Below are positions 16,819 to 36,077 of a stretch of 64,000 nt of DNA, one piece after another; positions within the stretch are counted from its first letter, which is position 1; every line of letters starts with the position of its first letter. The notes under the pieces were generated by a model. It did no database searches, was not told the DNA's origin, and was given only the letters and a program-made list of their open reading frames with translations. The position numbers were made by a program, and so were the translations under genes. This DNA is from Bacilli bacterium (lineage in GTDB: Bacteria > Bacillota_I > Bacilli_A > ML615J-28 > CAG-698). The stretch lies in NCBI GenBank assembly GCA_031553555.1, contig JAVBLL010000003.1:40359-104358 (forward strand), in the 5' to 3' direction.

Positions 16819-18141
16819 ATGTTTACAAATATAAAAATTGAAAATTTTCAATCACTAGTTAATCTTGAAGTTGATTTACTGAAGACAAACAACAATCCAA
16901 AAAAAATGATAGTAATTTATGGCGAAAATGGAGTTGGAAAAACAAATTTTGCTACAACTTTTCATATGCTATTAGAAACAATTAGAACCATGTCTATAAG
17001 AGAGAGGTTAGTAGAGTTATTGGAAAAGGATAAGGATAAAAAAGAGTTTTCTTTTTTTGAATCTATCATTAAAGACTATTATAGTGATACAGAGAGTATA
17101 ATTAAAAAATATAAAACACAAGATTCAAATGAAAATATGTTTATTGAATATAAATTTAAAATTAAAAGTAAAAAAGGAACCTATCATTTAGAATATAATA
17201 ACTTTGAATTGGTTTCTGAAAGGCTGGATTATGTTTTGAATTCTAATCAAATTTGTTTTTTTAATATAACGAATAACAAGGATAAAACAAAAATAAACGA
17301 AAAAATTTTCACAAATAAGCAATATTATAAGCAATTTGATGAAGAATTAAATAAGTATTGGGGTAAACATAGTTTTCTATCAATTTTATATAATGAAATA
17401 GATGATAAAAAGAGAGGCTATGTTAAAAAAAATGTAGCAAAAGAATTATTTGATGTATTATTTTTCTTTTTGAGTGTTAATACAAAAATAAAAAATAAAA
17501 ATAAAGAATTTGGTGTCTTTGGAACAAGTAATAAAAATATTCATGATTTTTGTACGGGAAAAATATCAGTAAAAGAAGAAAATGTTTTAGACAAAACTGC
17601 TATAATGTTAAAACAGTTGTTTACTAATATGTATTCAGACATAAAAGATGTATATTATAAAAAAGAGTTTATTGATAATAAAATAAATTATCAATTATAT
17701 GTAAAAAAATTAGTTTATAATAATTTATTAGAGATAAATTTTGTAAAAGAATCTACAGGGACACAAAATTTATTGGATCTTATTCCTTATATTTTACAAG
17801 CATTGAAAGGTAATGTGGTTATTATTGATGAAATGGATTCAGGAATTCATGATATTTTAATCAACAATCTTCTGAAAAATATAAAAGAATATATAAAAGG
17901 TCAATTAATTATTACTACACATAATACTTTGTTACTGGAGTCTGCATTATCTAAAGAAAATATATATATATTTATAGTAAATCATAATGCTGAAAAAAAA
18001 TTAATTCCGCTAACAAGTTTTGATGAACGACAACATAAGAACTTTAATATGAGAAAAAGGTACCTTACAGGTTTATATGGTGGCATACCTTATACAACGG
18101 ATATAGATTTTGATGAAATAGCTAATTATTTAAAGGATTAG
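16819..18141 (+). CDS. ABC-type (AAA_15/AAA_21-like) ATPase of the OLD / AbiLi / AriA class
   Basis: Walker A GENGVGKTN, signature-like STGTQN, Walker B VVIIDEMDSGIHD and TTHN. GGAG RBS. Confidence 0.8.
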   Translation: MFTNIKIENFQSLVNLEVDLLKTNNNPKKMIVIYGENGVGKTNFATTFHMLLETIRTMSIRERLVELLEKDKDKKEFSFFESIIKDYYSDTESIIKKYKTQDSNENMFIEYKFKIKSKKGTYHLEYNNFELVSERLDYVLNSNQICFFNITNNKDKTKINEKIFTNKQYYKQFDEELNKYWGKHSFLSILYNEIDDKKRGYVKKNVAKELFDVLFFFLSVNTKIKNKNKEFGVFGTSNKNIHDFCTGKISVKEENVLDKTAIMLKQLFTNMYSDIKDVYYKKEFIDNKINYQLYVKKLVYNNLLEINFVKESTGTQNLLDLIPYILQALKGNVVIIDEMDSGIHDILINNLLKNIKEYIKGQLIITTHNTLLLESALSKENIYIFIVNHNAEKKLIPLTSFDERQHKNFNMRKRYLTGLYGGIPYTTDIDFDEIANYLKD

Positions 18142-18145
18142 TTAA

Positions 18146-18748
18146 ATGGGGAGAGAACTTAATTATTTAAAAGCTGTAGTAATAGTTCACGGAAAATCGG
18201 AAAAACAAATATGTAATTTTATTAAGTCTAATTTGAGAATTAATATTTTTATTGAAAGCGATAAAAATGGAGAAAAGGCAATTCAAATAACCAGTTTAAT
18301 GAAGAGAACCTTAAATAATAAGAAATTTAAAAGTTTTAAATCATTAAAAAGTTTTTTTGATGACCTTCAAATTGATAAAGAAACAAAGCAAATTGCTGAT
18401 GGTTTTAAAATTTTTATTATAATGGATACTGATGATTGTACAGAACGACAAAAACAAGATTTTCAAAATAAGGCTATGTTCAAAGATCATTGGGCATATG
18501 ATTATATTGTACCAATTTGGAATTGTCCGAATTTGGAGGAAGTTTTAAGGAAATCGGGCATAAAATTCAAGAAAAAAGGCAAAAAACAAAAGGATGAATA
18601 TATTGATATATTTCCTACAGATGAAAAATATAAAAAATCTGATGTATTGCAAATTAAAGAATTTTACAATATATTGGAAAATAATAATAATACTAATATG
18701 AATATTTTCGTTGATTTTTGTCTGGAAATTTTACAAAGAAAACAATAA
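18146..18748 (+). CDS. RloB/AbiLii-like (TOPRIM-type) small protein, partner of the ATPase
   Basis: VVIVHGKSEKQICNF resembles the RloB CEGekTE motif. IIMDTDD is a DxD-type motif. PIWNCPNLEEVL resembles the RloB SNPcFE motif. It lies 4 nt after the ATPase gene. Confidence 0.6.
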   Translation: MGRELNYLKAVVIVHGKSEKQICNFIKSNLRINIFIESDKNGEKAIQITSLMKRTLNNKKFKSFKSLKSFFDDLQIDKETKQIADGFKIFIIMDTDDCTERQKQDFQNKAMFKDHWAYDYIVPIWNCPNLEEVLRKSGIKFKKKGKKQKDEYIDIFPTDEKYKKSDVLQIKEFYNILENNNNTNMNIFVDFCLEILQRKQ

Positions 18749-18848
18749 TATGTGGTGTCAAAAGTGGTGTCAAAAATTTGAGAAAATACTAAATCGATTG
18801 TAGGCGAAATTTTATAGCTAAAATAGAGGATTTAAGCAAATGTAAATT

Positions 18849-18876
18849 TGGGTTACTAACCCCATCGGTCGCCCCA
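18849..18876 (+). repeat. direct repeat of the tRNA-His 3-prime end (att-like)
   Basis: TGGGTTACTAACCCCATCGGTCGCCCCA versus tRNA TGGGTTCGATTCCCATCGGTCGCCCCA (15451-15477). Confidence 0.85.
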
Positions 18877-18888
18877 TTTAAGACTCTT

Positions 18889-18916
18889 AAACTAGGTTGA
18901 AAAGCCTAGTTTTTTT
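18889..18916 (+). terminator. hairpin terminator belonging to the repeated tRNA-His flank
   Basis: AAACTAGG ... CCTAGTTTTTTT. The same structure recurs at about 21487-21514 and about 23749-23777. Confidence 0.7.
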
Positions 18917-19012
18917 GTTGTTTAGGGTGGGTTTGTCGAAATTTGTCGGTCGAAAAATGTAGAAATATATGTTTATATATGATATTCTATATTAAATTAG
19001 GAGTGCACAAAG

Positions 19013-19210
19013 ATGCAAAATAACGAAAAAGATACAGAAAAACATCCGCTATATGAAACGTTTTTTAATATTTTTTCTAAAGAGGATTTAAATCTACCAT
19101 TAGAAAGACAAATTAATAATTTTGAAGAGGAATTAGAAAAATTGTTTTTGAAATACTTAAATTGCGATTCTATAGAAAATGGCATGTTTCCAAAAAGTGG
19201 AAACATATGA
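19013..19210 (+). CDS. small acidic ORF overlapping the RES gene (antitoxin candidate or displaced N-terminus)
   Basis: Good RBS (AGGAG 8 nt upstream). It overlaps the next ORF by 32 nt across an A5 run. Confidence 0.4.
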   Translation: MQNNEKDTEKHPLYETFFNIFSKEDLNLPLERQINNFEEELEKLFLKYLNCDSIENGMFPKSGNI

Positions 19211-20105
19211 AAAAATAAATAGCATTTGTTGTGGATTAATAAAATGTGTACATGAATACTTACAAGGTTTTCCAGCTACTGCATTTAATAGTTTTAAAGG
19301 TATAATGGATGAATTAATTAAATATCCCTTTAAAGTTTATCAAAAATCTAAGGAATATAGTCCAAAAGAATTATATAATGACACATTAAGTTTATACAGA
19401 TGTAGAACAGTTGATGATAATTCAGAGTTGCTTAGAAAAGATTTATTTCATGTGCCATATGATTCGCGTACTAAAATTAATACATGCAGATATAGTATTG
19501 CAGGTTACCCATGTTTATATTTAAGTACAAATTTAAAATTATCATATGCAGAGATTGGCAAGGAAAGGAACGGGTATCAATTTTCTAAATTTCAATTACA
19601 AAGAGATGAGGGAATTCATGGTATTGAAATTAGATTATTAGAATTGGCAGTGAGACCAAAAGATTACTTTGAATATAACAATAATAATATAAAAAAGAAA
19701 AAATTTGATGAAATTGATTTGAGTAAATATGATACTATGCATTATTATCTTTTATGGTATCCCCTAATTGCTTCGTGCTCTTTCATTAGAAAAAAAAGAG
19801 AAGACCCATTTGCTGAAGAATATATAATCCCGCAACTTTTAATGCAATGGCTGAGAAGATATAGTAAAAGAGAAAATGTATTATATGGTATTAGATACTT
19901 TTCTTGTTTTTCTAGAGAGTTATCAGATAATGGATTTAATTATGTTTTTCCTGTGAGTGGAAATAAAAGTGAAAAAAACTCAAATTATTGTAAAATATTA
20001 ACGGAAATTTTTAAGTTAACAACACCATATTATATTGAAGATATTAAGGATATAAAAAAAGTCAAGAAACATTTTTGTAATAAAAATGATTATGATTTTT
20101 TATAA
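19179..20105 (+). CDS. RES-domain protein
   Basis: CRYSIAGYPCLYLSTNLKLSYAEIG supplies the R and E motifs, and YIIPQLLMQWLRR...GIRYFS supplies the S motif. There is no RBS before the ATG at 19179. Confidence 0.65.
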   Translation: MACFQKVETYEKINSICCGLIKCVHEYLQGFPATAFNSFKGIMDELIKYPFKVYQKSKEYSPKELYNDTLSLYRCRTVDDNSELLRKDLFHVPYDSRTKINTCRYSIAGYPCLYLSTNLKLSYAEIGKERNGYQFSKFQLQRDEGIHGIEIRLLELAVRPKDYFEYNNNNIKKKKFDEIDLSKYDTMHYYLLWYPLIASCSFIRKKREDPFAEEYIIPQLLMQWLRRYSKRENVLYGIRYFSCFSRELSDNGFNYVFPVSGNKSEKNSNYCKILTEIFKLTTPYYIEDIKDIKKVKKHFCNKNDYDFL

Positions 20106-20263
20106 TCAAAATAAAAATTAATAATTATTTTAACTAATTAATAAAATCGGTTTGCAACAAAAAAACAGAAAATATGAATCTATATTTAATATTAATATAA
20201 TATTATGAAACAATAGAAAAACTATGATAAAAATTCTTAAAAATGAATAGGAGAGGAACTATA

Positions 20264-21439
20264 ATGCCTGAATTAGATAATAATCATTATTTACCAAGAT
20301 TTGTTTTAGATAATTTTTCAATAAAGATAAGTGCTGATAATAATCGTATTTATGCATATGATTTAGAGCATAAGTTCTTATCTGAACGCAATACAAAAAA
20401 GACTGCTTTTATTAAAAACTTTTATGATGATGAAAGATTGGACGATATAAAGACAATAGAGAAAAAATTAAATTCATTAATAGAAACTCCTGTTGCTAAT
20501 ATTTTTAAAAAAATCATTTCAGAAGAAAAATCAATTTGTATTACCAGAAAAGAACTTGAACTAATTAAAAAATATATGCTAACACAAATATATCGTAATC
20601 TTCGAAATAGTAAGGGGTATGAACTTACATCTACAACAGATGAGATTAAAATGTCTAAGTATAATAAACTCGAAAATGAATCCGAGTTAGATTTTTGGAA
20701 AACAGAACTATTAACAATTATAGAAACAGATTTTGATGAGTTAATAAAAAATAACTTAGTTGGCGTTAGACAATACGCTAATGAAATATATACAGGTTTC
20801 TTAATGTTCTTTAGAACCAACGATGAATTTATTATAAATGATAGTGGATTAGTTGCAGAAAGAGTTCCATATAAGATGAGCAAAGAATTTTATGAAAAAG
20901 CAATGGAGAATGCTGATTTAATGATTGGAATTACAGGTAGGACTGATTATAAAGAAACATTAACAAAGGAATATGAAAATGGAAGTAGTTATCTTGACAA
21001 TATGTTGATTTTCCCAATTGCCTCAAATTACTTTATTGCTTGTGTACATCCTCAATGGAAGAATCTTGTAATGTATCCTGAAATATTCAGGAATGATTCA
21101 AATATTCATTATGAATCAAACATCTTAATTAATCATTTAAATATACCAAAATGTGATTATGTTAATATAAAGTTAATGACTAATCAAGCATCAATTAATA
21201 AGTATAAGCATCCAGATGATAAATATACTTATAAAATAAACGTTCTAAATAATCAAGAGACTATATATATAAATTTATTAACTATGAATGAAGCATATAA
21301 GTATATAATTTTTAAAAATTTAGAGAATGTGATAAATAGTATTTCAGTATATATTGCAAATCAAGATAGAATTTCAAATATCAAGAATGATTATAAGCCA
21401 TTATTAGAGCAAATTAAGAAAAAGATGAATATTGGTTGA
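20264..21439 (+). CDS. DUF4238-family protein
   Basis: N-terminal NNHYLPRFVLDNF matches the H-y-x-P-x-F-y-L-x-x-F opening of DUF4238. AGGAGAGG RBS precedes the ATG at 20264. Confidence 0.7.
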   Translation: MPELDNNHYLPRFVLDNFSIKISADNNRIYAYDLEHKFLSERNTKKTAFIKNFYDDERLDDIKTIEKKLNSLIETPVANIFKKIISEEKSICITRKELELIKKYMLTQIYRNLRNSKGYELTSTTDEIKMSKYNKLENESELDFWKTELLTIIETDFDELIKNNLVGVRQYANEIYTGFLMFFRTNDEFIINDSGLVAERVPYKMSKEFYEKAMENADLMIGITGRTDYKETLTKEYENGSSYLDNMLIFPIASNYFIACVHPQWKNLVMYPEIFRNDSNIHYESNILINHLNIPKCDYVNIKLMTNQASINKYKHPDDKYTYKINVLNNQETIYINLLTMNEAYKYIIFKNLENVINSISVYIANQDRISNIKNDYKPLLEQIKKKMNIG

Positions 21440-23850: not shown

Positions 23851-24832
23851 AAGAAGGATAAAATAATTTTTAAAAATTATTATAAAAAAGCATATTATTG
23901 CTTTTACAAAATGTAAAATACGATAACAATAAATTAGTCAATAATATATCTATATTTCAAAGTAATGTTTTTTGCTTGTTTTAGCACATTATAAAGTAAG
24001 GGTTACCGCCAAAATTAAGGCGATGAACCAAGTAAAAGGAGGGTAGGTAATATCAAATGGTACTGTAAATTTAATTAAAAACATTTTAAATAAAAAGAGG
24101 AAAATTATAAAAACAATAATGCATTTTTTATAATGAATACTTTTTTATCGTTAAACATCTCACTATCAAAAAATGTAAATTCAAAAACAATAATAATCAT
24201 ATGAATTATTTATTTCAATAACAAAACGTCATATAAAATTAATTATAAGGAAAGTAGCGTTCACAACAAATGCTTTCAATCATACTATAAATTTTTGAAA
24301 AGGAATTACTAATTGATAGAAAAGGTGTTAGAATTACTTTTTATAATGTTTGTTGGATAATAGGGATTATCGGCTATGCAGAATAAATTATAATAATGAT
24401 AATGGTTAATCCTTTTTTGCGATTCAATGCTAATATAGATTTTAATTATCATATTTTCAGTTTTGATTCCAATTTGATGCCTGTTGTATATATTTTAATA
24501 ATATCTTAGCCTCACCAACAAATATTATCTTAATCGCAATTCTTAAAACTGGTGATTTGGCAGGAACATATAATTATAATGATAATTATATCATTTATAA
24601 GTAACTGACGAATCGAAAAATAAACCATAATGTAATCTTTAATTTATTTTAATGAAAAATTTTATAATTTTTCGTGCATCTTTATAGACATTATGGTAAA
24701 AAAAATAATCAATACAAAATAAACATAATTATAGTTAGAAATTATGTTTTCAAAAATACTGTTATTATATATAATATTCTTACAGTATTATTTTTCATTT
24801 AAAAAATAAAAAATAAGGAGAAAATAAATTAT

Positions 24833-26056
24833 ATGAAAAAATTTTTAAAATTGTCTTTTATTGCTATTATAGCATTTTTTGTGTTATCTTTATCAGCAAA
24901 TACTAAAGCAACAACTGCCATGGGAAATGACAAATGGGTAATTGCTGTTAATGGAAATCAACACTATATTTATAATGATTCACCTTCATTTACTGAAAAT
25001 GCTTCAAGATTTACAATACGTTTTGAAACTAGTTATGGAAGTAGTGGAATGGGAGTATACAGTTTATATCGATATTCATCTCCAGGAGTAAAAGAATATT
25101 TATATCAAAATGCTACTATGCCACATGGCGAAGAAACGGTTACCGTTATTGGATATACTGGTGAGTTTTATTTAAGTGCTAATGGAATGTATTATGATGT
25201 TGATGTCGAGAGTTGGGTAATAGATACTTATAATCCAATTATTAATGATTATAAATTTACAATTCGCACAGTAGAATTATTTTTCCTTCAAGGACAAAAT
25301 AATACTATAAACCCAGCGTCTTTACCGTCTGTTTTCTTTAAAGTTGTAAATCCGAATGATATGGTTAGTATGACAATAGAATTAAATGGAGGCATTGCTG
25401 TTCCGTTCTCAGCAAACCCACTAGCATTTGACTACCAAGAAGCATTACCATACCACTATATGTGTCTTAGTAAAGGACATTATAAAATAACAATTACTGA
25501 TGTATGGGGCGCAACTAGTGTTTATCAATTTGGATATACATCTGATTTAATCGTTGATTTTATTCAAGGTCAACCATTTCAAACAAACGATACTACTGTT
25601 GCTTTTAAGGTAACTTCATTTGTTGAATCAGTAGTATTTATTTATAAAAATTATTCTCCAGCAGTTCCAATGGCAGGAAGTCCAGTATATGATTATCATG
25701 TAGTTAATGGTCAATATATGTTTATTGCTGAAGGATATTATGCAATGCTTATTTTAGATATTTTTGGTGGATATCATAGTGTTAATTTCACTATAAGATT
25801 CACTGCGCCAACAGTATATTTTAATAATGTAGAAGCAACAAGCACTCAAACTCTTGTTTCGGTTTTACAAACTGGTGGCTTAGTAGCAACTTTTGATGGC
25901 AATGGAAGAACGATTGTTAGTGCAACATATGAATATAATTTTGGAAGTCCAGTTTCTTTTACATCAGGGCAAACATTTAAAGCAGTTGGAAATTATGTGT
26001 TTAAAGTAACAGATGATAGAGGAAAAACAACTACTGTATCAGCTTTTGTTTATTAA
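24833..26056 (+). CDS. secreted protein with three repeated beta-rich modules
   Basis: Signal peptide ending ANTKA. Recurrent module ends are GHYKITITDVWGATSVYQFGY, GYYAMLILDIFGGYHSVNFTI and GNYVFKVTDDRGKTTTVSAFVY. Confidence 0.7.
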   Translation: MKKFLKLSFIAIIAFFVLSLSANTKATTAMGNDKWVIAVNGNQHYIYNDSPSFTENASRFTIRFETSYGSSGMGVYSLYRYSSPGVKEYLYQNATMPHGEETVTVIGYTGEFYLSANGMYYDVDVESWVIDTYNPIINDYKFTIRTVELFFLQGQNNTINPASLPSVFFKVVNPNDMVSMTIELNGGIAVPFSANPLAFDYQEALPYHYMCLSKGHYKITITDVWGATSVYQFGYTSDLIVDFIQGQPFQTNDTTVAFKVTSFVESVVFIYKNYSPAVPMAGSPVYDYHVVNGQYMFIAEGYYAMLILDIFGGYHSVNFTIRFTAPTVYFNNVEATSTQTLVSVLQTGGLVATFDGNGRTIVSATYEYNFGSPVSFTSGQTFKAVGNYVFKVTDDRGKTTTVSAFVY

Positions 26057-26061
26057 ATAGA

Positions 26062-27756
26062 TTGTTAAGAAAGATACTAAATATATATTTAGTATCTTTC
26101 CCCTTTGTTAATACCCGCGAATATATATATGATATTGCAAATCGCTTAGATAAAGAAATTTTGCCTAATAGCGGCGGAACAAAGACTTATACTTACCACC
26201 CGGATGGCAGTATAAAAAGCGAGAAGATGAATAATGGAACTCCAATTGCGTATAATTATGAAAAAGGTAGACTTGTGAAGCGCGGATTGGTTTCGTATGG
26301 ATACGATAACCTTGGCAATTGTACCAATTTTGGTGGACTAAACTTAGCATGGGAACGCGGGAGCCTGCTAAAGGGCTATGGTACTCATGTTTATGATTAT
26401 AATGCCCAAGGAGTAAGGTATAGAAAAACCGGAGGAACAACTTCAATCTACTTCCACGACGGGACAAAACTTTTAGAAGAGCAGAGGGGCAATGTGCAAA
26501 TTAGGTATCTATATGATGCTGAAGGTATAATTGGATTTAGTATTCCTAGTGATAGAAACAATGACGATTATTTTTTCTCTAAGGATGTTAGCGGAAATGT
26601 TAGGGCGATTTTTAGAGCACAGGTCGTAGATGGTATTTATCCAAAGACAACTGAGGTGGCTAGGTACGAGTATGATGCTTGGGGAAATACCACAGTTTCG
26701 TCAATAGGAACTAACACCATAGGTGGGGTTTCAGTAGCTCAGTTTAACCGAATCAGATGGAAGGGACAGTATCAAGACGAATCAGATTTATATTATATTG
26801 GCGGAAGGTATTATAGCCCAGCGACCAAGCAGTATTTAAGTCCTGCTGGTCCCGAGTCAGCTTTTGGCAATGCTGCAATAATTTACGGACTAAATCAATA
26901 CTCTCTTTGCTTGACAAATTCTGTAAACATGGAGTATAATAATTATACGATTGCAACCAATGCTGAGCTTAGCTATGACCCTGATGCATTGTCTAACTGG
27001 AAGCTCTGGTGGAGTAGATACGGCGGATTTGTAATAGGTGGCGTTTTGGTTGTAGTAGGCATAATTGCTTGTCTTATACCAGGTGGTCAAGCTATTGGCG
27101 CTGGTTTAATAGTATCCGGGGTGTCACAAGCAATTTCGACAGGGCTGCAGCTTGCGGGAGTCAAATCCAAGCTGGCAATGCAGATAATGTCAGGACTTAA
27201 CATTGTTTGCGGACTGATAATGAGCTTTACACCACTGGCCCCTATGGGGTGGAGCATGATTGGTGCAGGAATTGGCGGCTATATTGCTGAAAAGTTAGGC
27301 GGAAGCTATGCTGTAGGTTGGGTAGTAGGTAGCATTGTTGGCGGGATAATTGGTAGTTATGCTTATAAAAGCGTTCAGGCTATGAGAACTAATGCGGCAG
27401 CAAGAGCTAATGCTAAGGCTTTGGCAAGTGCAGCGGGAGCGGAAGCAGCAAGAGATGCCAAAGTAGCTGAATTGCAAAATACGCTTACAAAAAAACAATT
27501 AAAAGAAGTCGCTGCAGTCGTGGGTGGTTATGATAAAGTAACAGGAGATATTGCAGTTGGAGTAAAATATTTTGATAAATTGCCATATTGTGCAGAAGCT
27601 CGGGTTGTAGAGCAATTAGGTGGAATGAGTAATATAAGTAACATAGTTATGACTTCGGCAATTCGCCCTCATAATATGACGGTAGTTGCAGTATGCAACT
27701 ATTGTCAGTCAATATACTCTACTACAAATTTTCTACCAGGAACTCCGTTTCAGTAA
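26062..27756 (+). CDS. 5-prime-truncated RHS/YD-repeat toxin with a glycine-zipper hydrophobic linker and a C-terminal deaminase-like domain
   Basis: YD repeats (YTYHPDGS, YGYDNLGN, YEYDAWGN) and an RHS core end (RWKGQYQDESDLYYIGGRYYSPATKQYLSPAG). The hydrophobic Gly-rich region spans about 27024-27372. CAE is at 27589-27597 and CNYC at 27694-27705. No plausible ATG or RBS lies at the 5-prime end. Confidence 0.75.
   Translation: MLRKILNIYLVSFPFVNTREYIYDIANRLDKEILPNSGGTKTYTYHPDGSIKSEKMNNGTPIAYNYEKGRLVKRGLVSYGYDNLGNCTNFGGLNLAWERGSLLKGYGTHVYDYNAQGVRYRKTGGTTSIYFHDGTKLLEEQRGNVQIRYLYDAEGIIGFSIPSDRNNDDYFFSKDVSGNVRAIFRAQVVDGIYPKTTEVARYEYDAWGNTTVSSIGTNTIGGVSVAQFNRIRWKGQYQDESDLYYIGGRYYSPATKQYLSPAGPESAFGNAAIIYGLNQYSLCLTNSVNMEYNNYTIATNAELSYDPDALSNWKLWWSRYGGFVIGGVLVVVGIIACLIPGGQAIGAGLIVSGVSQAISTGLQLAGVKSKLAMQIMSGLNIVCGLIMSFTPLAPMGWSMIGAGIGGYIAEKLGGSYAVGWVVGSIVGGIIGSYAYKSVQAMRTNAAARANAKALASAAGAEAARDAKVAELQNTLTKKQLKEVAAVVGGYDKVTGDIAVGVKYFDKLPYCAEARVVEQLGGMSNISNIVMTSAIRPHNMTVVAVCNYCQSIYSTTNFLPGTPFQ
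26069..26100 (+). terminator. strong hairpin directly after the 407-aa gene (no clear T-run)
   Basis: GAAAGATACTAAATA ... TATTTAGTATCTTTC. It lies inside the first codons of the RHS track ORF, which are therefore unlikely to be coding. Confidence 0.5.
26911..26940 (+). promoter_or_regulatory. promoter-like TTGACA-18 nt-TATAAT inside the RHS coding sequence
   Basis: TTGACA at 26911-26916 and TATAAT at 26935-26940. The same sequence is reiterated in four downstream junction modules. Confidence 0.55.
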
Positions 27757-27776
27757 CGTAAAAGGAGAAGAATATT

Positions 27777-28361
27777 ATGAAAGATTTATATAAAAATAAA
27801 GAAGATTGTATGGCTTTTTCTAATGAAACATTAGAAAAATATTTATTCGATAAAATCAAGAAAGAACAAGGCATTGATTTAGTTTATAGTTATTGCGATG
27901 ATAAACATAGTGATTTATTTCTTGAAATAAAAAGAAGCAACCAATTAAGTCCAGATGAACCAAATGATTATCTTGATAAAATTCATAGAATTGATTGTGT
28001 ATCTTTTGATGGAGATAGAGATGATTTTACAATCCATTTTCATAATTCAGCTATGGTCTCGGTATTTCTTTTTGACGCACAATTTATGTTTATTGATGAT
28101 ATTTGTAAAAAAGATGTGCGGGGCATAGAAGGGTGCATTGTCTATGAAGGATATCTTCGAGATAAGACGCATGAGCAAATTCTTGAAATATTCTTTAATC
28201 TATTAAAGATATTGCATAGTACGACAAAAATTACGTATGAGGAAAATTTTGTTTCCCGTATCGGTTACTATTCAAAATATAATTATACGATTAAACTAAT
28301 TAAACCCAATTGTGAAAAACAGGCTATTCAGTATGACAATTTTCTGTTTCTAATCAATTAG
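27777..28361 (+). CDS. putative cognate immunity protein of the deaminase-like toxin
   Basis: It starts 20 nt after the toxin stop with an AAAAGGAG RBS. No recognised motif. A paralog lies downstream. Confidence 0.55.
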   Translation: MKDLYKNKEDCMAFSNETLEKYLFDKIKKEQGIDLVYSYCDDKHSDLFLEIKRSNQLSPDEPNDYLDKIHRIDCVSFDGDRDDFTIHFHNSAMVSVFLFDAQFMFIDDICKKDVRGIEGCIVYEGYLRDKTHEQILEIFFNLLKILHSTTKITYEENFVSRIGYYSKYNYTIKLIKPNCEKQAIQYDNFLFLIN

Positions 28362-28498
28362 TTTAAACAAAACATACTAAGAAAGGTTATTACTTAAAGA
28401 GTGAAGTTATAAAAATTTAAATGTAGATATAAGAGTTATTAGTGATTTTTTACCTGGCATCATATTTCAATAGAAACCTAAAAAAGGAGATAACGATT

Positions 28499-29098
28499 AT
28501 GTCATTATATCAACCAAATGAATTATGTTTACAATTTGAAGATTGGGAAATAACAAAATATTTAATTGAACCACTTAAATTAAGATTTCCTGAATTGGGG
28601 CTTCTTGACTTTGATAATAAGGTTGAAGATAGATTAACAACTGGAATAAAATCTATTACTTTTTATCCAGATAGAGCAGATATTTTAAAAAGGGATTTTT
28701 TTGGTGTTTTTTTTGAAAAAGGCAAAATGGTTGCAATATTGATTTATGATAGAGAATTTGTGTTTATTGATGACTCTATGAAGGAATTTATCGGTCATTA
28801 AAATACCGACGATAATGCCTTTTATCAGGGAACATTGAGAAATAAGACACATAAGGAAATTTTAGAGTTAGTTAAAGCTTTTATTGAATTATTAATTGAT
28901 ACAGAGGATTATCAAATTTTAGAAAATAAAATAAGTAAGTATAATACCGAAGATATGCTACATAGGGCAATTGATTTTCCTGAATGGAAAGCTGCTCATC
29001 CATATTGTTATTATAATGTTTTTCTTAAAAAACAAAAACCAGGTGAATCTATTCAATTTGAAAACATTACATTTCACATAGTAAATTCTTTTAAGTAA
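28499..29098 (+). pseudogene. paralog of the 27777-28361 immunity gene interrupted by one in-frame TAA
   Basis: Track ORFs 28442-28801 and 28835-29098 are in the same frame, separated by TAA 28799-28801. FVFIDD and LRNKTHKEILEL match FMFIDD and LRDKTHEQILEI of the paralog. Confidence 0.6.
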
Positions 29099-29106
29099 CG
29101 ACAGTT

Positions 29107-29243
29107 AAAAAAGGGATCAGGGAGCGTGTAGGATTTATTTCTTCCCGCTCTTTTTCTTTATCTCTTAATTTGACAAATCCCGTAAACATGGAGTATAATA
29201 GTTATATAATTGCAACCAATGACGAGATTAGTTATGATCTATA
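29107..29243 (+). repeat. junction module 1: hairpin, then TTGACA-18-TATAAT, then an RHS-derived remnant
   Basis: TTGACA 29170-29175 and TATAAT 29194-29199. The remnant encodes NMEYNSYIIATNDEISYD, compared with NMEYNNYTIATNAELSYD in the RHS gene. Confidence 0.8.
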
Positions 29244-29348
29244 GTCAATGCCTAATTGAAAATTTTGTTGGAATCAAGTTCCTCTTGGTGCAAAAACACA
29301 TAAATTGCTTACAGATTTTTGGCGCAACTTTTAAAAATAGGAGGTCAC

Positions 29349-29855
29349 ATGAAAAGCATAGAGGCATTAAAAAAAAGGTTATCGGCGGAAAATACCTTGC
29401 TGATACAAGATGAACATGGATGCGTAAAAACAGTTGAATTTAAATGGGAAAATTCTGCGACAGACACTGAGATTTCTCAATTTGAAAATGATAATAAAAT
29501 TATTTTGCCTGAAGACTACAAAAAATTTTTAAAGATCTCTAATGGAACTACGCTTTTTATGGATACATGGGGATACCAGATTTATGGATTAAGTGAAATT
29601 ATGGAAGAGACAGAAAAAGCAAAATGGCCTGATTTCAAAGATACATGGCTTGTCTTTGGAAGACATCAATCAGATGGCGATTTGTATATTTTTGATTTGG
29701 AAAAAGTTAAAAATAATGAAAAGGTATACCTTTTATACGGCATGGAATGCGACCATCCTTCCGATTATTTTTATTTAGGTAGTTTTGGAACATGGCTTGA
29801 TAGATTAATTGTGTCTCAAGGTTCACAATATTGGTTATGGTTTCCTAACCATTAA
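29349..29855 (+). CDS. SMI1/KNR4 (SUKH-1) family immunity protein
   Basis: ILPEDYKKFLKISNGTTLF, IYGLSEI and LVFGRHQSDGDLYIFD are typical SMI1/KNR4 features. AGGAGG RBS precedes the ATG at 29349. Confidence 0.8.
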   Translation: MKSIEALKKRLSAENTLLIQDEHGCVKTVEFKWENSATDTEISQFENDNKIILPEDYKKFLKISNGTTLFMDTWGYQIYGLSEIMEETEKAKWPDFKDTWLVFGRHQSDGDLYIFDLEKVKNNEKVYLLYGMECDHPSDYFYLGSFGTWLDRLIVSQGSQYWLWFPNH

Positions 29856-29890
29856 ACTAAATCAAAGCAACCAATTCAAAAGAATTTACC

Positions 29891-29990
29891 AAAAAAGAGT
29901 GTGAAGGGTTCATTTCTTTCTCACTCTTTTCATTATCTCTTAATATTTGACATATCCAGCGAACATGGAGTATAATAGTTATATAATTGA
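29891..29990 (+). repeat. junction module 2
   Basis: Hairpin AAAAAAGAGTGTGAAGGGTTCATTTCTTTCTCACTCTTTT. TTGACA 29947-29952 and TATAAT 29971-29976. Confidence 0.8.
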
Positions 29991-30153
29991 ACAGTAGTCA
30001 ATATTTAGGTAATGTCGAGACTCATGTATATAATTCCTCAGGACAATGGTTATTCATTAATGAAAATCTAACATTTAATACTGCTTTTTGTTTAAGTGAA
30101 AACCAGTTTTATTATTTATTAAGCATAGGAAAAGTGGGAGGTCACTAAAAATT

Positions 30154-30621
30154 ATGAACAAAACAAATATGATATCAATTAACTTTAGATTAGTTATAAC
30201 AATGATGACATCTCATGAACTATCAAATGAAAAAGTGGATAAGATTTTGCATATTATAAAAAACCAATTTAATTATACTAATGAAATATTTAGGTTTACA
30301 AATAAGGGTTTTCATGAAGTGGACATAGATTTATTTGATGTGATATTTTCAAGTACAGATATTTATAAGGATTTAGACAAGTTAATATATATTTGTGAAG
30401 AAATACTAGTTACAATTGATAATTCAATAGATTTTATTATTGGTAGTTTAGACACTAGTAGTAGGGTATTAGAATATGAAAAAAATCATGATATTAGTAG
30501 TGGATTACTAATTACATCTCAATTAATTCAAGGAACTAATCCTTACTATTCTTCCAAGACATGTAATGCATATGTTAAAAATCTAGATGATGATTGTTTT
30601 GGGGTATATTCTAGTGTTTGA
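30154..30621 (+). CDS. hypothetical protein in an immunity slot
   Basis: GGGAGG RBS. It is preceded by junction module 2. No motif recognised. Confidence 0.5.
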   Translation: MNKTNMISINFRLVITMMTSHELSNEKVDKILHIIKNQFNYTNEIFRFTNKGFHEVDIDLFDVIFSSTDIYKDLDKLIYICEEILVTIDNSIDFIIGSLDTSSRVLEYEKNHDISSGLLITSQLIQGTNPYYSSKTCNAYVKNLDDDCFGVYSSV

Positions 30622-30651
30622 TGAACCCATATTTAATCAATTGAATATAGC

Positions 30652-30835
30652 AAAAAGAACGTCAAGAATTCATTTCTTCCTCGCTCTTTTTCTTTATCTC
30701 TTAATTTGACAAATCCCGTAAATATAGAGTATAATAATTATACGATTGCAACTAATGCTGAGCTTAACTATGACCCAGAGGCACTGTCTAGTTGGAAGCT
30801 TTGGTGGAGTAGATAGGGCTTGTTTGTAATAGGTA
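30652..30835 (+). repeat. junction module 3 with the longest RHS-derived remnant
   Basis: TTGACA 30706-30711 and TATAAT 30730-30735. The remnant reads NIEYNNYTIATNAELNYDPEALSSWKLWWSR followed by a TAG where the RHS gene has TAC. Confidence 0.85.
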
Positions 30836-30928
30836 GGTATTGTCGGCTATTAAAGCAAATATAGATACTGGTGACTGGGGAAAGGATTTGGCAATAATAT
30901 TATATTCCTTTTTGACTGGTTTTAAAAT

Positions 30929-31339
30929 ATGGAGGAACTAAAAGTGGAAGTTATTAAAAAAATAAATGAGATTTGTTGGGCGGACTGTTCTACAGATATT
31001 TTTCAAATTGACTATGAAAAAATTATAATAAAAATAGTCTTTTATGGAGAAATCGAACGTTATGTAACTATTCAATGCAACAATTATATTGGATTCACGT
31101 TTGTTGGACATTGGGATGAAAATATTATTGAAGATATTAATATTGATACTGAAGGTGAATTAATAAAACAGTCATTAAAAAACATACGACGCAATTATTA
31201 TAAAAATCCTAATGATAATTTTTCTTTTTTGGGCGGAGGGGTAAAAAAGTTTGATAATATTTGGTATCAATTAAACATAAAGCTAATTGATGGAAATATT
31301 ATCAAAATAGTTTGCGAGAGTTTTTTGCTTAATTTATAG
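30929..31339 (+). CDS. hypothetical protein in an immunity slot
   Basis: ATGGAGG context. It follows junction module 3. No motif recognised. Confidence 0.5.
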   Translation: MEELKVEVIKKINEICWADCSTDIFQIDYEKIIIKIVFYGEIERYVTIQCNNYIGFTFVGHWDENIIEDINIDTEGELIKQSLKNIRRNYYKNPNDNFSFLGGGVKKFDNIWYQLNIKLIDGNIIKIVCESFLLNL

Positions 31340-31434
31340 CACCTGTTTATGTTGGATTAGAAGGCGTAGATAATCTTTTATTTCTTCCATGAGGATATTA
31401 AAAAAATGTTTTGAATCAAGGAGCTATAATTATT

Positions 31435-32114
31435 ATGAATAAAATACCAAATCACTTAATAAGAAACTTTGACGTTATTAAAACTGCTGCTTTCCCTGAT
31501 AACTCTTTTAAATTATCAGGAGAAATAAAATGTGATTGCGGGGCAAACATTTTTAGTTTGTTTAAAACAAAAAAATTCAAACTTTGGAAGAAAAACTTTA
31601 TTGGCAAAATTATAAAAAGACTATAACCGAAGCAAGTGCATTAGTGCCACTAGAGTGTCGTAATGGTCACTATGGTTTGATTGAAATAGGCAATATATTG
31701 GGGTATACAAAAGAACATAAATTTCATCCATTAAAAGATATTATTGAATTAAACCAGAAAATGAAAAATTTTCCACCAATACCACTTATTTGCTCGGCTA
31801 AGTGTACGCACTGCGAAAAAGAAATTCTAATCTTCGATATCTCTAAGCATGGCTATAATGCTTTAACCACTAACACCAAATACTTAAACAATTATAAAAT
31901 GCAGAAAAAAAGTTCTTGTCGCAAATGTAAAAATGATATATACAAGGTTCATGTCAAAATAGACCACATGGGCAAGGATGATGTTTTGCAAGAGGGTAGC
32001 AACGTAATAAGCGAAGAAAACTGGGTTGATGCATTTGATTGGATTACAATAGATATAGAGTGTTCAAAATGCGGCAACATCAGCAAGTCTTGGGTAAATT
32101 TGGAAGTAATGTAA
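31435..32114 (+). pseudogene. multi-CxxC zinc-ribbon protein split by a frameshift at an A7 run (or two overlapping ORFs)
   Basis: Track ORFs 31411-31626 and 31584-32114 overlap. A 1-nt change in the A7 run at 31569-31575 would fuse ...SLFKTKK to IQTLEEKLYWQ.... Motifs present are CDCG, CTHCEKE, CRKCKND and CSKCGN. Confidence 0.45.
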
Positions 32115-32121
32115 AACCATC

Positions 32122-32207
32122 AAAAAAGAGCGTGAAGAATTCATTTTTCCTCGCTCTTTTTCTTTATCTTCTAATTTGACAAATCTCATAAATATGAAGT
32201 ATAATAT
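32122..32207 (+). repeat. junction module 4
   Basis: Hairpin AAAAAAGAGCGTGAAGAATTCATTTTTCCTCGCTCTTTTT. TTGACA 32176-32181 and TATAAT 32200-32205. Confidence 0.8.
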
Positions 32208-32270
32208 TTTTAAGAAAATGGCGAACCTTTTTATAACTTTTGTGACTATATAAGTGAGGAGGTAAAAACT

Positions 32271-33899
32271 TTGAATAAAAATGAGTTAAAAGAAAAAATA
32301 GTTGATTATGTTGATAAAGTATTTTTTTATTGTGTTAAAAGATGTAGTAACAGAATGGATGCAGAAGATTTATCTCAAACAATACTTTTAGAAGTAATTA
32401 AAAATATCGATAAAGGGGCTCATATTGAAAACTTTGATTATTATATTTGGGCAGTGTGTAAAAATCAATATAATACTTATTTAAGAAGAATAATTAAGGA
32501 TAGAAATAATATTAGTTTTGTAGATGATATTAATGAAATAGAAGATTTTAAAACATCTCTTGATAAAATATTGGAAGACGAAAAAATCAGAAGAATGAAC
32601 CAAGCCATTAAACTATTGAGTAAAGACTACGCAGAAATACTTTACGCTTATTATGTAGAAGATAAAACTCTTAAGTTCATAGCCAAAGAACAATCATTAC
32701 CTCTAGGAACAGTTAAAAGAAAACTGTATGTTATTAGACAAAAGTTAAAGGAGTATTTAAAAATGGAAAAATTAAATGGCAAAAAAGCATATGTGCCAAA
32801 GAATTTCACATCTTGTATAGCATGTCAAAATTTTGGAACTTATAATCCATATGATTATGTTAAGTCACTAATAAACAAAAATTTATTATATCATTCATAT
32901 AATAATTATTGTAGTTTGGAAGATTACTCATTAGAACTAGGTATTTCGTTACCTTATATTAAAGATATTGTAGATCAACTTGTAAATGCTACATTATTAT
33001 TTAAAACAAAAAATAATAAATATGTTACTAATTTCCCGTATATTACAAAAGAAATCTTAAATAAAAGTAATAACGTTTTACTAGAAAACCATAAAGAATA
33101 TATTGATGAATTAATTAAGTTTGCTAAAGCTCATATAGATGAGTATCGGGAATTAGTAACTTATGCAAATCTTTCAAATGGTGAATTAATGTGGAGTTTT
33201 TGTTTGTATTTAAATTATATAGTTTTAAATGATGTAAAACCTGAATTTTCCTATCATGAACATCCCGGAGGAGGAAGATGGGATTTCTACATGACAGATT
33301 TGAGAGATATGAATGATTTAATGTATGATATGTCAATTAATACATATAAAGATGGAATTGATAAAGTTAATGCATATGCATTTCCATGTGCAAATGATAC
33401 TGGAAGGTTAGCGTTTAATAAATGTGCCAATGGTCAAGAGAATTATGTTCTATTAAATGAATTATTACATCATTGTAATGCTACTTATGATAGTGTTGTA
33501 AATAGAATATTTTGTGACCATAAAAATCAAATTAACGATTATATTGATAAAGGATTTTTAAAAGTAGTAGATAACAAGATTAAGTTTAACTTCCCATTCT
33601 TTAAATATCATGATTTCAAAAAAGTAGAAAAAATGATGTATAGTGATGAGCTAAATGTAGCAAAAGAAAAATTACAAATAATAATTAATAAATTAGTAAG
33701 TAACATGAAAAATTATCTTCCGGAATATTTAAATGATTATACTAATTCATTAATCTCTAATCAATTATGGAATATTCAAAGTTTAGTAGTAGAAGCATTT
33801 AAAGAAGCTAAATTATTAGATTTAAAAGAAGAAAAAGAATACTTTCCATATAATATGATTATGATAACATCAGATATAAATATGATTTATGAAAAATAG
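32271..33899 (+). CDS. sigma-70/ECF-like region 2 and region 4 protein with a roughly 370-aa C-terminal extension
   Basis: DAEDLSQTILLEVIKNI is region-2-like. LSKDYAEILYAYYVEDKTLKFIAKEQSLPLGTVKRKLYVIRQKLKEY is a region-4 HTH. TTG start lies 8 nt after GGAGG. Confidence 0.7.
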   Translation: MNKNELKEKIVDYVDKVFFYCVKRCSNRMDAEDLSQTILLEVIKNIDKGAHIENFDYYIWAVCKNQYNTYLRRIIKDRNNISFVDDINEIEDFKTSLDKILEDEKIRRMNQAIKLLSKDYAEILYAYYVEDKTLKFIAKEQSLPLGTVKRKLYVIRQKLKEYLKMEKLNGKKAYVPKNFTSCIACQNFGTYNPYDYVKSLINKNLLYHSYNNYCSLEDYSLELGISLPYIKDIVDQLVNATLLFKTKNNKYVTNFPYITKEILNKSNNVLLENHKEYIDELIKFAKAHIDEYRELVTYANLSNGELMWSFCLYLNYIVLNDVKPEFSYHEHPGGGRWDFYMTDLRDMNDLMYDMSINTYKDGIDKVNAYAFPCANDTGRLAFNKCANGQENYVLLNELLHHCNATYDSVVNRIFCDHKNQINDYIDKGFLKVVDNKIKFNFPFFKYHDFKKVEKMMYSDELNVAKEKLQIIINKLVSNMKNYLPEYLNDYTNSLISNQLWNIQSLVVEAFKEAKLLDLKEEKEYFPYNMIMITSDINMIYEK

Positions 33900-33954
33900 T
33901 ATAGTAGAAATAAATTAGTTGTATTAAAACTAACGGTCAATTTAATAGAAAATA

Positions 33955-34095
33955 GAAAAGCAATTATAGGTGAATTTTAATAGCTATAATAGAGAATTTA
34001 AACAAATATAAGTAATGAATGTCCCTATTGATTGTCCCATTTAAGAATAGTAAGGTTGAGTAGAAATACTTGATCTTTTTTGATGTTTTTGAGGA
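33955..34095 (+). repeat. degenerate copy of the islet right end, the tRNA-His 3-prime fragment and the flank
   Basis: ATTATAGGTGAATTTTAATAGCTATAATAGAGAATTTAAACAAATATAAG resembles 18800-18848. ATTGATTGTCCCATTTAAGAATAG resembles CATCGGTCGCCCCATTTAAGACTC. Confidence 0.5.
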
Positions 34096-34224
34096 TTTAT
34101 CGAACTATGCATGATGAATATTGTTGAAGTCGAAAATTATTTTTTAATATAGTATAGTTATAAATATTAACTTTATACATAATGCTGCATTCACAGGCAG
34201 ATTATGTAAGTTCTGCTATTCAAA

Positions 34225-34270
34225 ATAAAACACCTCAAATATGTAAGATAAAACACCTCAAATATGTAAG
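34225..34270 (+). repeat. 2 x 23-bp perfect tandem repeat upstream of a promoter
   Basis: ATAAAACACCTCAAATATGTAAG occurs twice (34225-34247 and 34248-34270). TTTACA, a 17-nt spacer and TATAAT (34301-34306) follow. Confidence 0.8.
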
Positions 34271-34324
34271 ATAAGCCTTTACAATTAAACTTGATTAATG
34301 TATAATACTAATAGAGGTGTTATT

Positions 34325-35605
34325 ATGAAATATAAAAGTAGAATTGTTGATAAAGTTTTATCATTGAAATTAAATGCATTTGGCGCAGCATTAATTGTTG
34401 GTCCAAAAGGTTGTGGGAAAACAACTACAGCTAAGCAAATTGCAAAAAATGTGATTGAATTTCAAGATGAAGATAAACGTGACCAATACTTGTCTGTTGC
34501 TAATAATATGCCGTCAAAATTGCTAATTGGTGAGAAACCTATTTTATTTGATGAATGGCAAGATGCGCCTAAAATATGGGGTGCAATTAGAAAATCAATT
34601 GATGATACTGGGGATGTAGGAATGTATATATTAACTGGTTCGTCTTCACAAGATGTGGATACGCCACATACAGGTACAATGAGAATTAGTAAATTGACTA
34701 TGTTGCCAATGAGTTTATATGAATCAAATGAATCAAATGGAGAAGTATCATTAATAGATCTATTTAATAATACTAAAGCATTTGATGGCTGTATCTCAAA
34801 ATTATCTATTGATGGATTAATTAATGCAATATGTAGGGGCGGTTGGCCAAGAACATTAAATCTAAAGGACGAAAATGCAAAATTAGAAATTGTTAAAGAT
34901 TTGTATAAACAAACCTATCAAGTTGATATTTCAAATATATCCAAAGTTAAAAGAAACCCTAATATTGCACAAGCAATACTTAGATCTTATAGTAGAAATA
35001 TATGCACGCTTGCAGAAACAAAAACAATATTCGGAGATGTTGCAGCCAATTATGATATTTCTAGACCTACTTATTATGAATATATTAATGATTTAAAAAA
35101 ACTATTTATTATTGATGATATAGAACCATGGTGTCCTGCAATAAGATCAAAAACCGTAATAAGATCAGCCTTAAAGCGAAACTTAATTGACCCTTCAATT
35201 GCTGTAGCAGCCATGGGTATTTCTCCTGATTATTTTAATAAAGATTATAAAACACTTGGATTCTTATTTGAATCGTTATGTATTAGAGATTTAAAAATAT
35301 ATTCACAATCTTTTGATGGTCAAGTTTCCTATTATAGAGATAGGTATGGGTTAGAAGCTGATTGTGTGTTACATTTAAATGATGGTAGATATGCTATAAT
35401 TGAGTTTAAGTTAGGTTCAAATGAAATTGACGAAGGTGCAAAGCATTTATGTGAAATTGAAAATTTAATTAAAGTTTATAATGAAAAGGAAAAGCAATGC
35501 CCATTAAGATTACCTGATTTAAAAATAGTGATTACAGGAACTGAGTATGGATATTTAAGGGATGATGGAGTTTTCATTATACCAATTGGATGCTTGAAAA
35601 ATTAA
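34325..35605 (+). CDS. AAA_14-type ATPase with a DUF4143-like C-terminal domain
   Basis: Walker A GPKGCGKTT, ILFDEWQ (Walker B-like) and ILTGSS. The length and layout are typical of the widespread ATPase-DUF4143 family. Confidence 0.8.
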   Translation: MKYKSRIVDKVLSLKLNAFGAALIVGPKGCGKTTTAKQIAKNVIEFQDEDKRDQYLSVANNMPSKLLIGEKPILFDEWQDAPKIWGAIRKSIDDTGDVGMYILTGSSSQDVDTPHTGTMRISKLTMLPMSLYESNESNGEVSLIDLFNNTKAFDGCISKLSIDGLINAICRGGWPRTLNLKDENAKLEIVKDLYKQTYQVDISNISKVKRNPNIAQAILRSYSRNICTLAETKTIFGDVAANYDISRPTYYEYINDLKKLFIIDDIEPWCPAIRSKTVIRSALKRNLIDPSIAVAAMGISPDYFNKDYKTLGFLFESLCIRDLKIYSQSFDGQVSYYRDRYGLEADCVLHLNDGRYAIIEFKLGSNEIDEGAKHLCEIENLIKVYNEKEKQCPLRLPDLKIVITGTEYGYLRDDGVFIIPIGCLKN

Positions 35606-36077
35606 TTTTTTAATTAGAAATATTGAAAAAAAATAATTTAAAATAAGGAACAAAAATTTTAAAACAAAGAATTGGTTATGATGAAGAAAACAAATAAAAC
35701 CTTAAGGGTAAATATTTAAAATCATTTTTATCCAAAGGTTGTTTTTAAAAATGATTTTATGAGTGGAGAATTTAGTGATTATTTTAACGAAATCAGAATT
35801 CATCTTATTCATAGGCAACTAGAGGAATTATATGAAGAATTTAACAAAAGGATAAATAATCCTAGATAGCAAACTTTATGTTATATTATTATAGTAATCT
35901 AATTAAATAAATCCAAAAAATAAAAGTTTAATAGAAATTGTATATATAAGACAATAAATAAATGTTTAAAGTAATAATTATTAAAATTCTTGTATAATAT
36001 TGATAATTATGTTAGAATAATATGTATTATAGGTTATAATAATCTATAATACATATTTAAAAATGGAGGAAATAGAA

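Follow-up and report, generated by a model that had tools for sequence, protein, structure and literature searches.

A predicted promoter at the RHS core/toxin boundary recurs ahead of toxin-less immunity-type genes in a gut Bacilli genome

Organization of the locus

The locus described here belongs to a Bacilli bacterium (assembly GCA_031553555.1, contig JAVBLL010000003.1, positions 40,359-104,358); the whole 64,000-nt stretch that was analysed is referred to as the window, and all coordinates are counted from its first letter unless another locus is named. It carries an array that opens with a fragment of an RHS toxin gene and continues with small, co-directional immunity-type genes (Table 1). 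At the boundary between the RHS core and the toxin lies a 30-nt element of the form TTGACA-N18-TATAAT (copy 0), and four non-coding copies of this junction (copies 1-4) are found downstream, each behind a terminator-like hairpin. The comparative evidence presented below indicates that the element is probably a working promoter of the housekeeping-sigma (sigma-A/sigma-70) type, embedded in the RHS core of toxins from gut Firmicutes.

Table 1. Features of the array and its downstream flank in the window, and comparable orphan units in related loci (L followed by a number; positions are those within each locus).
Locus	Feature	Position	Strand	Remarks
Window	5'-truncated RHS orphan	26062..27756	+	564 aa; ~290 aa YD-repeat/RHS core, pre-toxin segment, C-terminal toxin
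Window	Copy 0	26911..26940	+	TTGACA-N18-TATAAT in codons L-T-N-S-V-N-M-E-Y-N at the RHS core end; hexamers 12/12
Window	Cognate immunity-type gene	27777..28361	+	194 aa; ribosome-binding site AAGGAG; follows the toxin as homologues do
Window	Paralogue of the 27777..28361 gene	28499..29098	+	27% identity; in-frame TAA at 28799-28801
Window	Hairpin and T-run, end of unit 0	29120-29160	+	fold -15.8 kcal/mol; z = -1.3
Window	Copy 1 module	29170..29199	+	hexamers 12/12; then ~90 nt of decayed RHS remnant
Window	SUKH/SMI1-KNR4 immunity-type gene	29349..29855	+	PF09346, E = 3.7e-17
Window	Hairpin and T-run	29893-29935	+	fold -17.1 kcal/mol; z = -3.8
Window	Copy 2 module	29947..29976	+	hexamers 12/12; RHS remnant after the -10 hexamer only ~16 nt
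Window	155-aa open reading frame, presumed immunity gene	30154..30621	+	assigned from position and ribosome-binding site
Window	Hairpin and T-run	30652-30696	+	z = -2.6
Window	Copy 3 module	30706..30735	+	hexamers 12/12; then ~125 nt of RHS remnant (to ~30834), 86% identical to copy 0
Window	Immunity-type gene	30944..31339	+	131 aa from GTG; homologues P0025 and P0017
Window	Second gene of unit 3	31435..32114	+	frameshifted near A-rich ~31570-31600; frames 31411-31626 and 31584-32114 overlap and differ
Window	Hairpin and T-run	32123-32166	+	fold -15.3 kcal/mol; z = -4.7
Window	Copy 4, terminal module	32176..32205	+	hexamers 12/12; essentially no remnant; abuts chromosome flank
Window	Resident extracytoplasmic-function-type sigma factor gene	32271..33899	+	542 aa; long C-terminal extension; TIGR02937; outside the array
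L003	Orphan unit	3281		hairpin, then TTGACA-17-TATAAT with rewritten spacer and decayed stub
L012, L011	Orphan units	7244, 8704 (L012)		hairpins, then TTGACA or TTAACA, 16 nt, TATAAT
L031	Orphan units	12421		full-length RHS, then three hairpin and promoter-stub units before immunity-size frames of 216-218 aa
L016	Orphan units	11778, 13030		two intact toxin-immunity cassettes, homology starting exactly at TTGACA, each after a hairpin

A consensus scan of a 12-kb region of the window (24-36 kb) returned copies 0-4 as exact matches at all 12 hexamer positions and no further site of this quality. The first-pass annotation, made by reading the sequence alone, had listed these five -35/-10 pairs, and each is confirmed; the invariant 18-nt spacer that it described is invariant in length, which is 18 nt in all copies, but not in sequence, as 10 of the 18 positions vary across the five 30-mers. 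The four downstream copies of the core/toxin junction were also recovered by repeat search, tblastn and nhmmer, and hairpin, linker and promoter-like core together constitute a single 85-nt repeat family (D2) with four copies at 61-84% identity. With the 30-mer in degenerate form (up to three mismatches) four of the five sites were recovered against none expected in shuffled sequences; the one missed, copy 2, has a more divergent spacer, with five spacer differences. The hexamers, and their spacing of 18 nt in the window copies and 16-18 nt in orphan copies elsewhere, are those of housekeeping sigma-70/sigma-A promoters.

The window is AT-rich (~27% GC, with a 38.5% GC patch at 26-28 kb), and a chance origin of the sites in such DNA was considered. 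A weak-consensus promoter scan indeed finds 89 sites against 80 expected in shuffled sequences, i.e. near chance level. Perfect sites, in the region scanned, are confined to the modules; on both strands of a related-locus set comprising the window and 34 further loci (531 kb) there are 14 perfect TTGACA-N18-TATAAT sites, and all 14 lie at this RHS junction or at orphan copies thereof. A chance origin is thereby rejected.

Each downstream copy is preceded by a hairpin and T-run located 9-11 nt before the -35 hexamer, as had been claimed from the sequence. The free energies range from -10 to -17 kcal/mol, and the z-score is -2.6 or lower in three of the four. All of them combine a G+C-containing stem-loop with a U-run, the hallmark of intrinsic terminators, and they are predicted to act as such. 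The hairpin ahead of copy 2 shows a compensatory stem change, from C-G to U-A, relative to the other copies. The hairpins are confined to the ends of the promoter-headed units: the gaps inside units (28362-28498 and 31340-31434) gave no stable hairpin on folding. A simple terminator scanner missed the four owing to its loop and stem criteria, and an Rfam scan of 24000-36000 at E <= 1 returned no RNA family. A metagenome scan was run with the hairpin-linker GCTCTTTTTCTTTATCTYYTAAT, picked as the query so as not to select on the hexamers; it gave 11 matches, all of them unrelated T-rich coding or low-complexity sequence without the module.

The statement that each downstream copy is followed by 10-100 nt of RHS remnant and then an immunity-type gene needs amendment on both counts. 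The remnants of copies 1 and 2 fall in this range, whereas that of copy 3 is longer and copy 4 has essentially none; likewise, immunity-type genes follow copies 1-3 only, and the gene after copy 4 encodes the sigma factor. The accompanying claim, that the toxin parts have been almost wholly deleted, is borne out: copies 1-4 are followed by stop-containing remnants of 0-125 nt and by no toxin open reading frame.

Conservation of the hexamers in coding and non-coding copies

The first-pass annotation had proposed that its reading would fail if the hexamers were no better conserved than their flanks. They are far better conserved: among the four non-coding copies none of the 12 hexamer positions varies, against 47 of 91 positions elsewhere (one-sided Fisher p = 3.7e-4), and the ten variable sites of the five 30-mers are without exception spacer positions (p = 1.5e-3). 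Such a concentration of change in spacer and flanks is the pattern of purifying selection on the hexamers.

In the intact coding context the same bases are held at synonymous sites. Nine related RHS genes with the motif LTNP..YN (35-49% identity across the query) use TTG in 9/9, ACA in 9/9, TAT in 8/9 and AAT in 9/9 at the hexamer codons, even where third-codon-position GC reaches 0.61-0.72. Flanking synonymous sites in these nine genes are clearly randomised: three conserved Leu columns use five codons each, another Thr column has ACG in six genes and ACA in three, and other Asn and Pro columns have mixed codons. Calculated from the codon usage of each gene itself, the joint log10 P of the hexamer codons is -16.5, where 1e-16 is an upper bound on the significance because the nine coding sequences share ancestry. 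The -35/-10 pair is present within the core coding sequence of full-length genes (L004, L005, L009, L012 and L031) as well as of orphans. This retention supports the earlier suggestion of an internal promoter in the toxin gene and suggests that the promoter, which appears to be ancestral in intact RHS genes, was not newly acquired by the stubs; to call the stub 'co-opted' was therefore an overstatement, since the element already looks like a selected promoter in intact full-length genes.

Other RHS subgroups arrive at similar hexamers through different residues. In the V-A-N subgroup the codons GTT GC(A/G) AAT yield TTGCAA or TTGCGA, 17 nt from TATAAT, and in the single V-D-N gene GTT GAC AAT yields TTGACA, 17 nt from TATTAT. 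A further subgroup, TSNPVAMLLA, served as a negative control: it keeps the protein motif NP(V/L) without any of the hexamers. Constraint at the protein level alone was rejected as an explanation, as it leaves both the synonymous-site pattern and the non-coding copies unaccounted for. It is conceivable, if somewhat short of an even bet, that the dependence runs the other way, i.e. that the amino acids of the core/toxin boundary (L-T, V-A and V-D, all of which spell a -35 hexamer) have been shaped by the need for a promoter, and that this built-in promoter sets the 5' edge of the cassettes. The element would then be a DNA-level signal that limits which codons, and which amino acids, a conserved protein motif can use.

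The same data bear on a simpler account, namely that the stubs are relics of serial cassette displacement or unequal homologous recombination, the hexamers being accidents of Leu-Thr and Tyr-Asn codons in copies that are young or gene-converted. Homology between the stubs and the RHS junction is clear, and hairpin and stub are repeated together as an 85-nt unit, as unequal crossing-over would spread them, but at their level of identity the copies are old rather than recently homogenised. Similarly, TAT and AAT are preferred codons in AT-rich hosts, yet the codon retention persists in GC3-rich genes. Orphans with long stubs are found in the same RHS family, whereas the stubs at issue have no toxin to which they could switch; moreover, half of the other positions vary and no hexamer position does, and spacer indels elsewhere stay at 16-18 nt. 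We consider this account unlikely and favor a promoter under selection.

Orphan units in other genomes

The window RHS protein has few close relatives and occurs on one contig only in the protein collection; the best RHS matches in species-representative genomes are 50% identical where the aligned segment is short and 48% identical where it is long. A scan of these genomes with the RHS sequence gave 31 loci from gut Clostridia, Erysipelotrichales and other Bacilli-type metagenome-assembled genomes. A survey of related genomes for the module had been proposed at the outset, and units of terminator, promoter stub and immunity gene are indeed present in independent genomes (Table 1). Their hairpin sequences differ completely between genomes, and the terminator-stub architecture has thus arisen repeatedly.

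The short orphan stubs share a characteristic 5' edge, which lies 0-12 nt from the -35 hexamer in at least five lineages (the window, L003, L012, L031 and L016), while other orphans of the RHS family keep 86-960 core codons. This two-class distribution of stub lengths is not explained by random deletion alone; one possibility is selection to keep the promoter but as little homology to the main gene as possible. In L031, an Erysipelotrichales array, the last stub (15395-15450) is not followed by any gene and has lost its -10 hexamer (TAATGC): the -35-like GTTGCGAAT is kept but GTGTAATGC stands where GTGTATAAT is expected, in contrast to the stubs that precede genes.

Two further loci show departures of their own. 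In L016, from Subdoligranulum sp. CAG:314, the main RHS gene (2,113 aa) is cut short at the TTGACA within ATAATTGACA, and the 10-mer at this break is common to the start of the first orphan cassette (10760-10830, 11760-11790 and 13010-13040), which suggests either that breaks concentrate at the -35 hexamer or that a repeat was misassembled. In L015 (11400-16000) the orphan cassettes use a Hint-domain (PT-HINT-like) segment as the stub instead of the core-end junction, and one of these cassettes carries a toxin and immunity pair matching that of the window (69% and 61% identity).

The sharp edges raise the question of a dedicated site: hairpin and junction might form a recombination or cassette-capture site, comparable to integron attC sites or to the repeats of the Bacteroidales acquired interbacterial defence system rAID-1, maintained for a recombinase or crossover. 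Edges this precise exceed what random deletion followed by selection easily explains, the L016 main gene is broken exactly at TTGACA, and rAID-1 arrays do have repetitive intergenic sequences (10.1101/471110); but the conserved positions are two sigma-70 hexamers at promoter spacing and not a dyad or core-site pattern, and a shared site sits poorly with hairpins that are wholly different between genomes. A serine recombinase does lie 2 kb downstream in L001, whereas no tyrosine or serine recombinase is found near the window array, the nearest candidate being an IS3-type transposase 10 kb upstream. We judge a capture site to be very unlikely, and a promoter kept at the cassette boundary remains our preferred reading.

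The RHS fragment and its surroundings

The open reading frame (ORF) 26062-27756 had been taken for the toxin gene itself, which cannot be upheld. It opens with a TTG, lacks an ATG or ribosome-binding site, and alignment with homologues places it in the interior of full-length RHS proteins (1,400-2,100 aa); it is hence a truncated orphan without a credible start. Its start falls inside a perfect 14-bp-stem hairpin (26069-26100), which has the look of a terminator for the secreted-protein gene that lies upstream (24833-26056). The GC content rises from ~27% to 38.5% near 26057-26110, a point that marks the left edge of a foreign insert starting mid-RHS. The window holds no full-length RHS gene, its largest ORF (801 aa) being unrelated.

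The core of the fragment is recognised by TIGR03696 (Rhs_assc_core; E = 2.5e-10) over residues 204-290, and copy 0 occupies the final codons of this domain. Between core end and variable toxin is a segment of ~130 aa (window 26941-27340 and homologues), with the motif YN.YTI.T..L.YDPP.L..W..FW and, after it, a hydrophobic region rich in glycine. Homologues with different toxins keep this segment, which matches no Pfam family and may be an undescribed pre-toxin membrane domain. The C-terminal toxin gave no significant match in Pfam or PDB; judged by eye from its CAE...CxxC residues, it may be deaminase-like.

Further upstream (15536-21439) lie an IS3-type transposase, on the minus strand, and genes for a DUF4238 protein and for an AbiEii-like (AAA_21) ATPase that has a small partner gene; the region resembles an island of defence genes or mobile elements. 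Among 20 flanking ORFs scanned against Pfam, none was recognised as a tyrosine or serine recombinase or integrase, the sole candidate being the rve domain of the IS3-type transposase (15536-16651).

Small genes of the array and the downstream flank

Every gene of the array has its own ribosome-binding site. The association of the first of these (27777-28361) with the toxin is also seen elsewhere: homologues of its product directly follow the same toxin domain in L001 and L015. In its paralogue, the ORFs 28442-28801 and 28835-29098 that flank the in-frame stop share one frame. For the 155-aa ORF of unit 2 no family match was obtained. In RHS orphan arrays, toxin-bearing genes are followed at a distance of 23 nt by P0025 and P0017, homologues of the first gene of unit 3. 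The disrupted genes, i.e. the paralogue in unit 0 and the second gene of unit 3, may be decaying or may reflect assembly errors.

The sigma factor that follows copy 4 belongs to a family with more than 225 homologues in unrelated contexts, many of them 70% identical and from gut Bacilli-type genomes. From ~32222 on, the window matches the conserved native upstream region of this family, which includes the motif GAAC(C)...GAC(A)CTATATAAGTGA(A/G)GAGG (window 32222-33899; L050 1340-1430; L046 9920-10010). This motif looks like an autoregulated promoter of the extracytoplasmic-function type, and the terminal RHS-derived module lies ~20 nt upstream of it. A role for copy 4 as an immunity-gene promoter was rejected, since the next gene is of a widespread resident family with its own upstream motif; copy 4 may now feed the sigma-factor gene.

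A model for the maintenance of displaced immunity genes

Taken together, these features suggest the following scheme, for which we infer promoter activity of the 30-nt elements, terminator activity of the hairpins and a protective function of the small genes. In an intact gene the internal promoter would start a second transcript, which runs through the untranslated toxin-domain region into the immunity gene, so that immunity protein would be made regardless of transcription of the large rhs gene. Its location at the boundary between conserved and variable sequence means that the promoter comes along with each toxin-immunity cassette. Once a cassette has moved downstream and lost its toxin part, the survivors would be the promoter, the immunity gene with its own ribosome-binding site and the intrinsic terminator. 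On this scheme 26911-32205 would comprise five consecutive units: unit 0, the truncated RHS/toxin with two immunity paralogues; units 1-3, toxin-less immunity genes; and unit 4, an empty terminal module reading into the resident sigma-factor gene. The locus would thus most likely be a defensive, toxin-silent bank of individually transcribed immunity genes.

Several observations weigh against this proposal. The case for a promoter is comparative throughout; the shared ancestry of the nine coding sequences, mentioned above, limits what they can contribute; the spacer in the window is 18 nt, one above the optimum, and the extended -10 TG is absent. The exact repeated unit, as far as the hairpin-linker is concerned, is known from the genome of the window only. 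The 155-aa ORF is presumed to be an immunity gene from its position, and two of the seven small genes are disrupted, one by an in-frame stop and one by a frameshift, which speaks against strong selection acting today on this part of the bank unless the disruptions are assembly errors. Finally, the hexamers of copy 4 are perfect though no immunity gene follows, and their retention is hence not strictly tied to immunity cargo.

The proposal bears on a wider problem. Orphan immunity genes protect gut bacteria only when they are expressed, and how expression is kept up after loss of the operon is seldom addressed; a boundary promoter that travels with each cassette would explain how displaced immunity genes stay active while their toxins are silenced or deleted. 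If the built-in promoter does set the 5' edge of the cassettes, toxin-less immunity genes could persist as minimal units of promoter, gene and terminator, and orphan edges at the -35 hexamer would result either from selection that keeps homology minimal or from a mechanism of cassette formation not yet recognised. The combination of terminator hairpin, TTGACA-N16-18-TATAAT and a decayed YN.YTI stub could also serve as a signature for immunity banks in uncultured Firmicutes.

Comparison with known systems

The closest functional parallel is the internal promoter P2 of the Salmonella Typhimurium rhs genes, which was identified by rapid amplification of 5' cDNA ends (5'RACE) and reporters (Starsta et al. 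2020, PLoS Genet, PMC7043789). P2 is a sigma-70-type promoter, TTGACG-17-TACAAT, within a published 108-bp sequence of the conserved rhs core; it is common to the main and orphan genes, gives the toxin region and the immunity gene a transcript independent of that of the full-length gene, and is found before at least 50 different toxins (PMC7043789). As in the loci described here, a -35/-10 pair is thus placed inside the core coding sequence of both main and orphan copies. The two elements have no sequence homology, however, and differ in position: P2 belongs to the YFDDETGLHYN stretch of the core and precedes PxxxxDPxGL by 89 nt, whereas the window element is made of the last core codons, and the window motif equivalent to the P2 position, QYQDESDLYY, contains no TTGAC. 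The hosts differ as well, being Proteobacteria with a type VI secretion system for P2 and gut Firmicutes for the window element, and minimal non-coding stubs with terminators before toxin-less immunity genes are a feature of the latter. P2 has been verified experimentally, whereas the window promoter is a prediction from sequence.

The Salmonella work also proposes a further role, in which the internal promoter mainly serves to express the toxin domain inside the producer, in the manner of a toxin-antitoxin system. P2 transcripts give rise to a toxic product from a CTG start (PMC7043789), and complete toxin-domain coding sequence follows both copy 0 and the L016 orphans; inspection of the window and L016 by eye alone, rather than by systematic search, revealed no ribosome-binding site with an in-frame start just after the predicted transcription starts. 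Furthermore, units 1-3 of the window and the units of L031 and L003 have kept the promoter although they have no toxin. We regard this as the least probable of the readings considered, and expression of the immunity gene as the probable function of the element.

Promoters that uncouple immunity genes from their operon are also known from Vibrio cholerae, where promoters inside vasX, tseL and vgrG-3 drive the immunity genes tsiV1-3 independently of the operon promoter (Miyata et al. 2013, PMC3857813). These lie in effector-specific sequence and not at a portable junction, and they are not reiterated with stubs along an orphan array.

The array resembles classical arrays of Rhs and contact-dependent inhibition (CDI) systems (Poole et al. 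2011, PMC3150448; Koskiniemi et al. 2014, PMC3967940) in its succession of downstream junction-homologous fragments, each followed by cargo and an immunity gene. Two features of Rhs orphan modules are thus present, namely a core domain before a variable region and the downstream junction fragments, while two others, a toxin with its cognate immunity gene in each orphan and a full-length main rhs gene upstream, are lacking. Classical orphans keep their toxins and serve toxin switching; units 1-3 of the window are toxin-less and bracketed by terminators and promoters, and no main gene is present in the window. In Escherichia coli EC93 the CDI orphan region is co-transcribed from upstream (PMC3150448). 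The contrast with classical arrays that the first-pass annotation had drawn is nevertheless weaker than it implied, because Salmonella main and orphan rhs genes share a 5'RACE-verified internal promoter (PMC7043789).

In gut bacteria, the Bacteroidales rAID-1 systems are consolidated, defensive arrays of orphan immunity genes with repetitive intergenic sequences (Ross et al. 2019, 10.1101/471110). In the window array, too, co-directional orphan immunity genes are separated by repetitive sequences, the four copies of the 85-nt D2 family. The defining features of rAID-1 are a neighbouring XerD-family recombinase and repeats of integron-like type; near the window array no such recombinase is found, and the repeat is RHS-derived and matches a promoter consensus. 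Membership in rAID-1 or another integron-like class was rejected for want of a recombinase among the flanking ORFs. If the built-in promoter does set the cassette edge and lets toxin-less immunity genes persist as self-contained units, these would represent a Gram-positive, recombinase-free counterpart of the Bacteroidales islands.

The principle of an internal promoter serving immunity is therefore already established by Salmonella P2 and the V. cholerae promoters. What the present locus and its relatives add is the position of the element in the core, the host phylum, a consensus promoter held at synonymous sites, and minimal promoter-terminator units for immunity genes that have lost their toxins.

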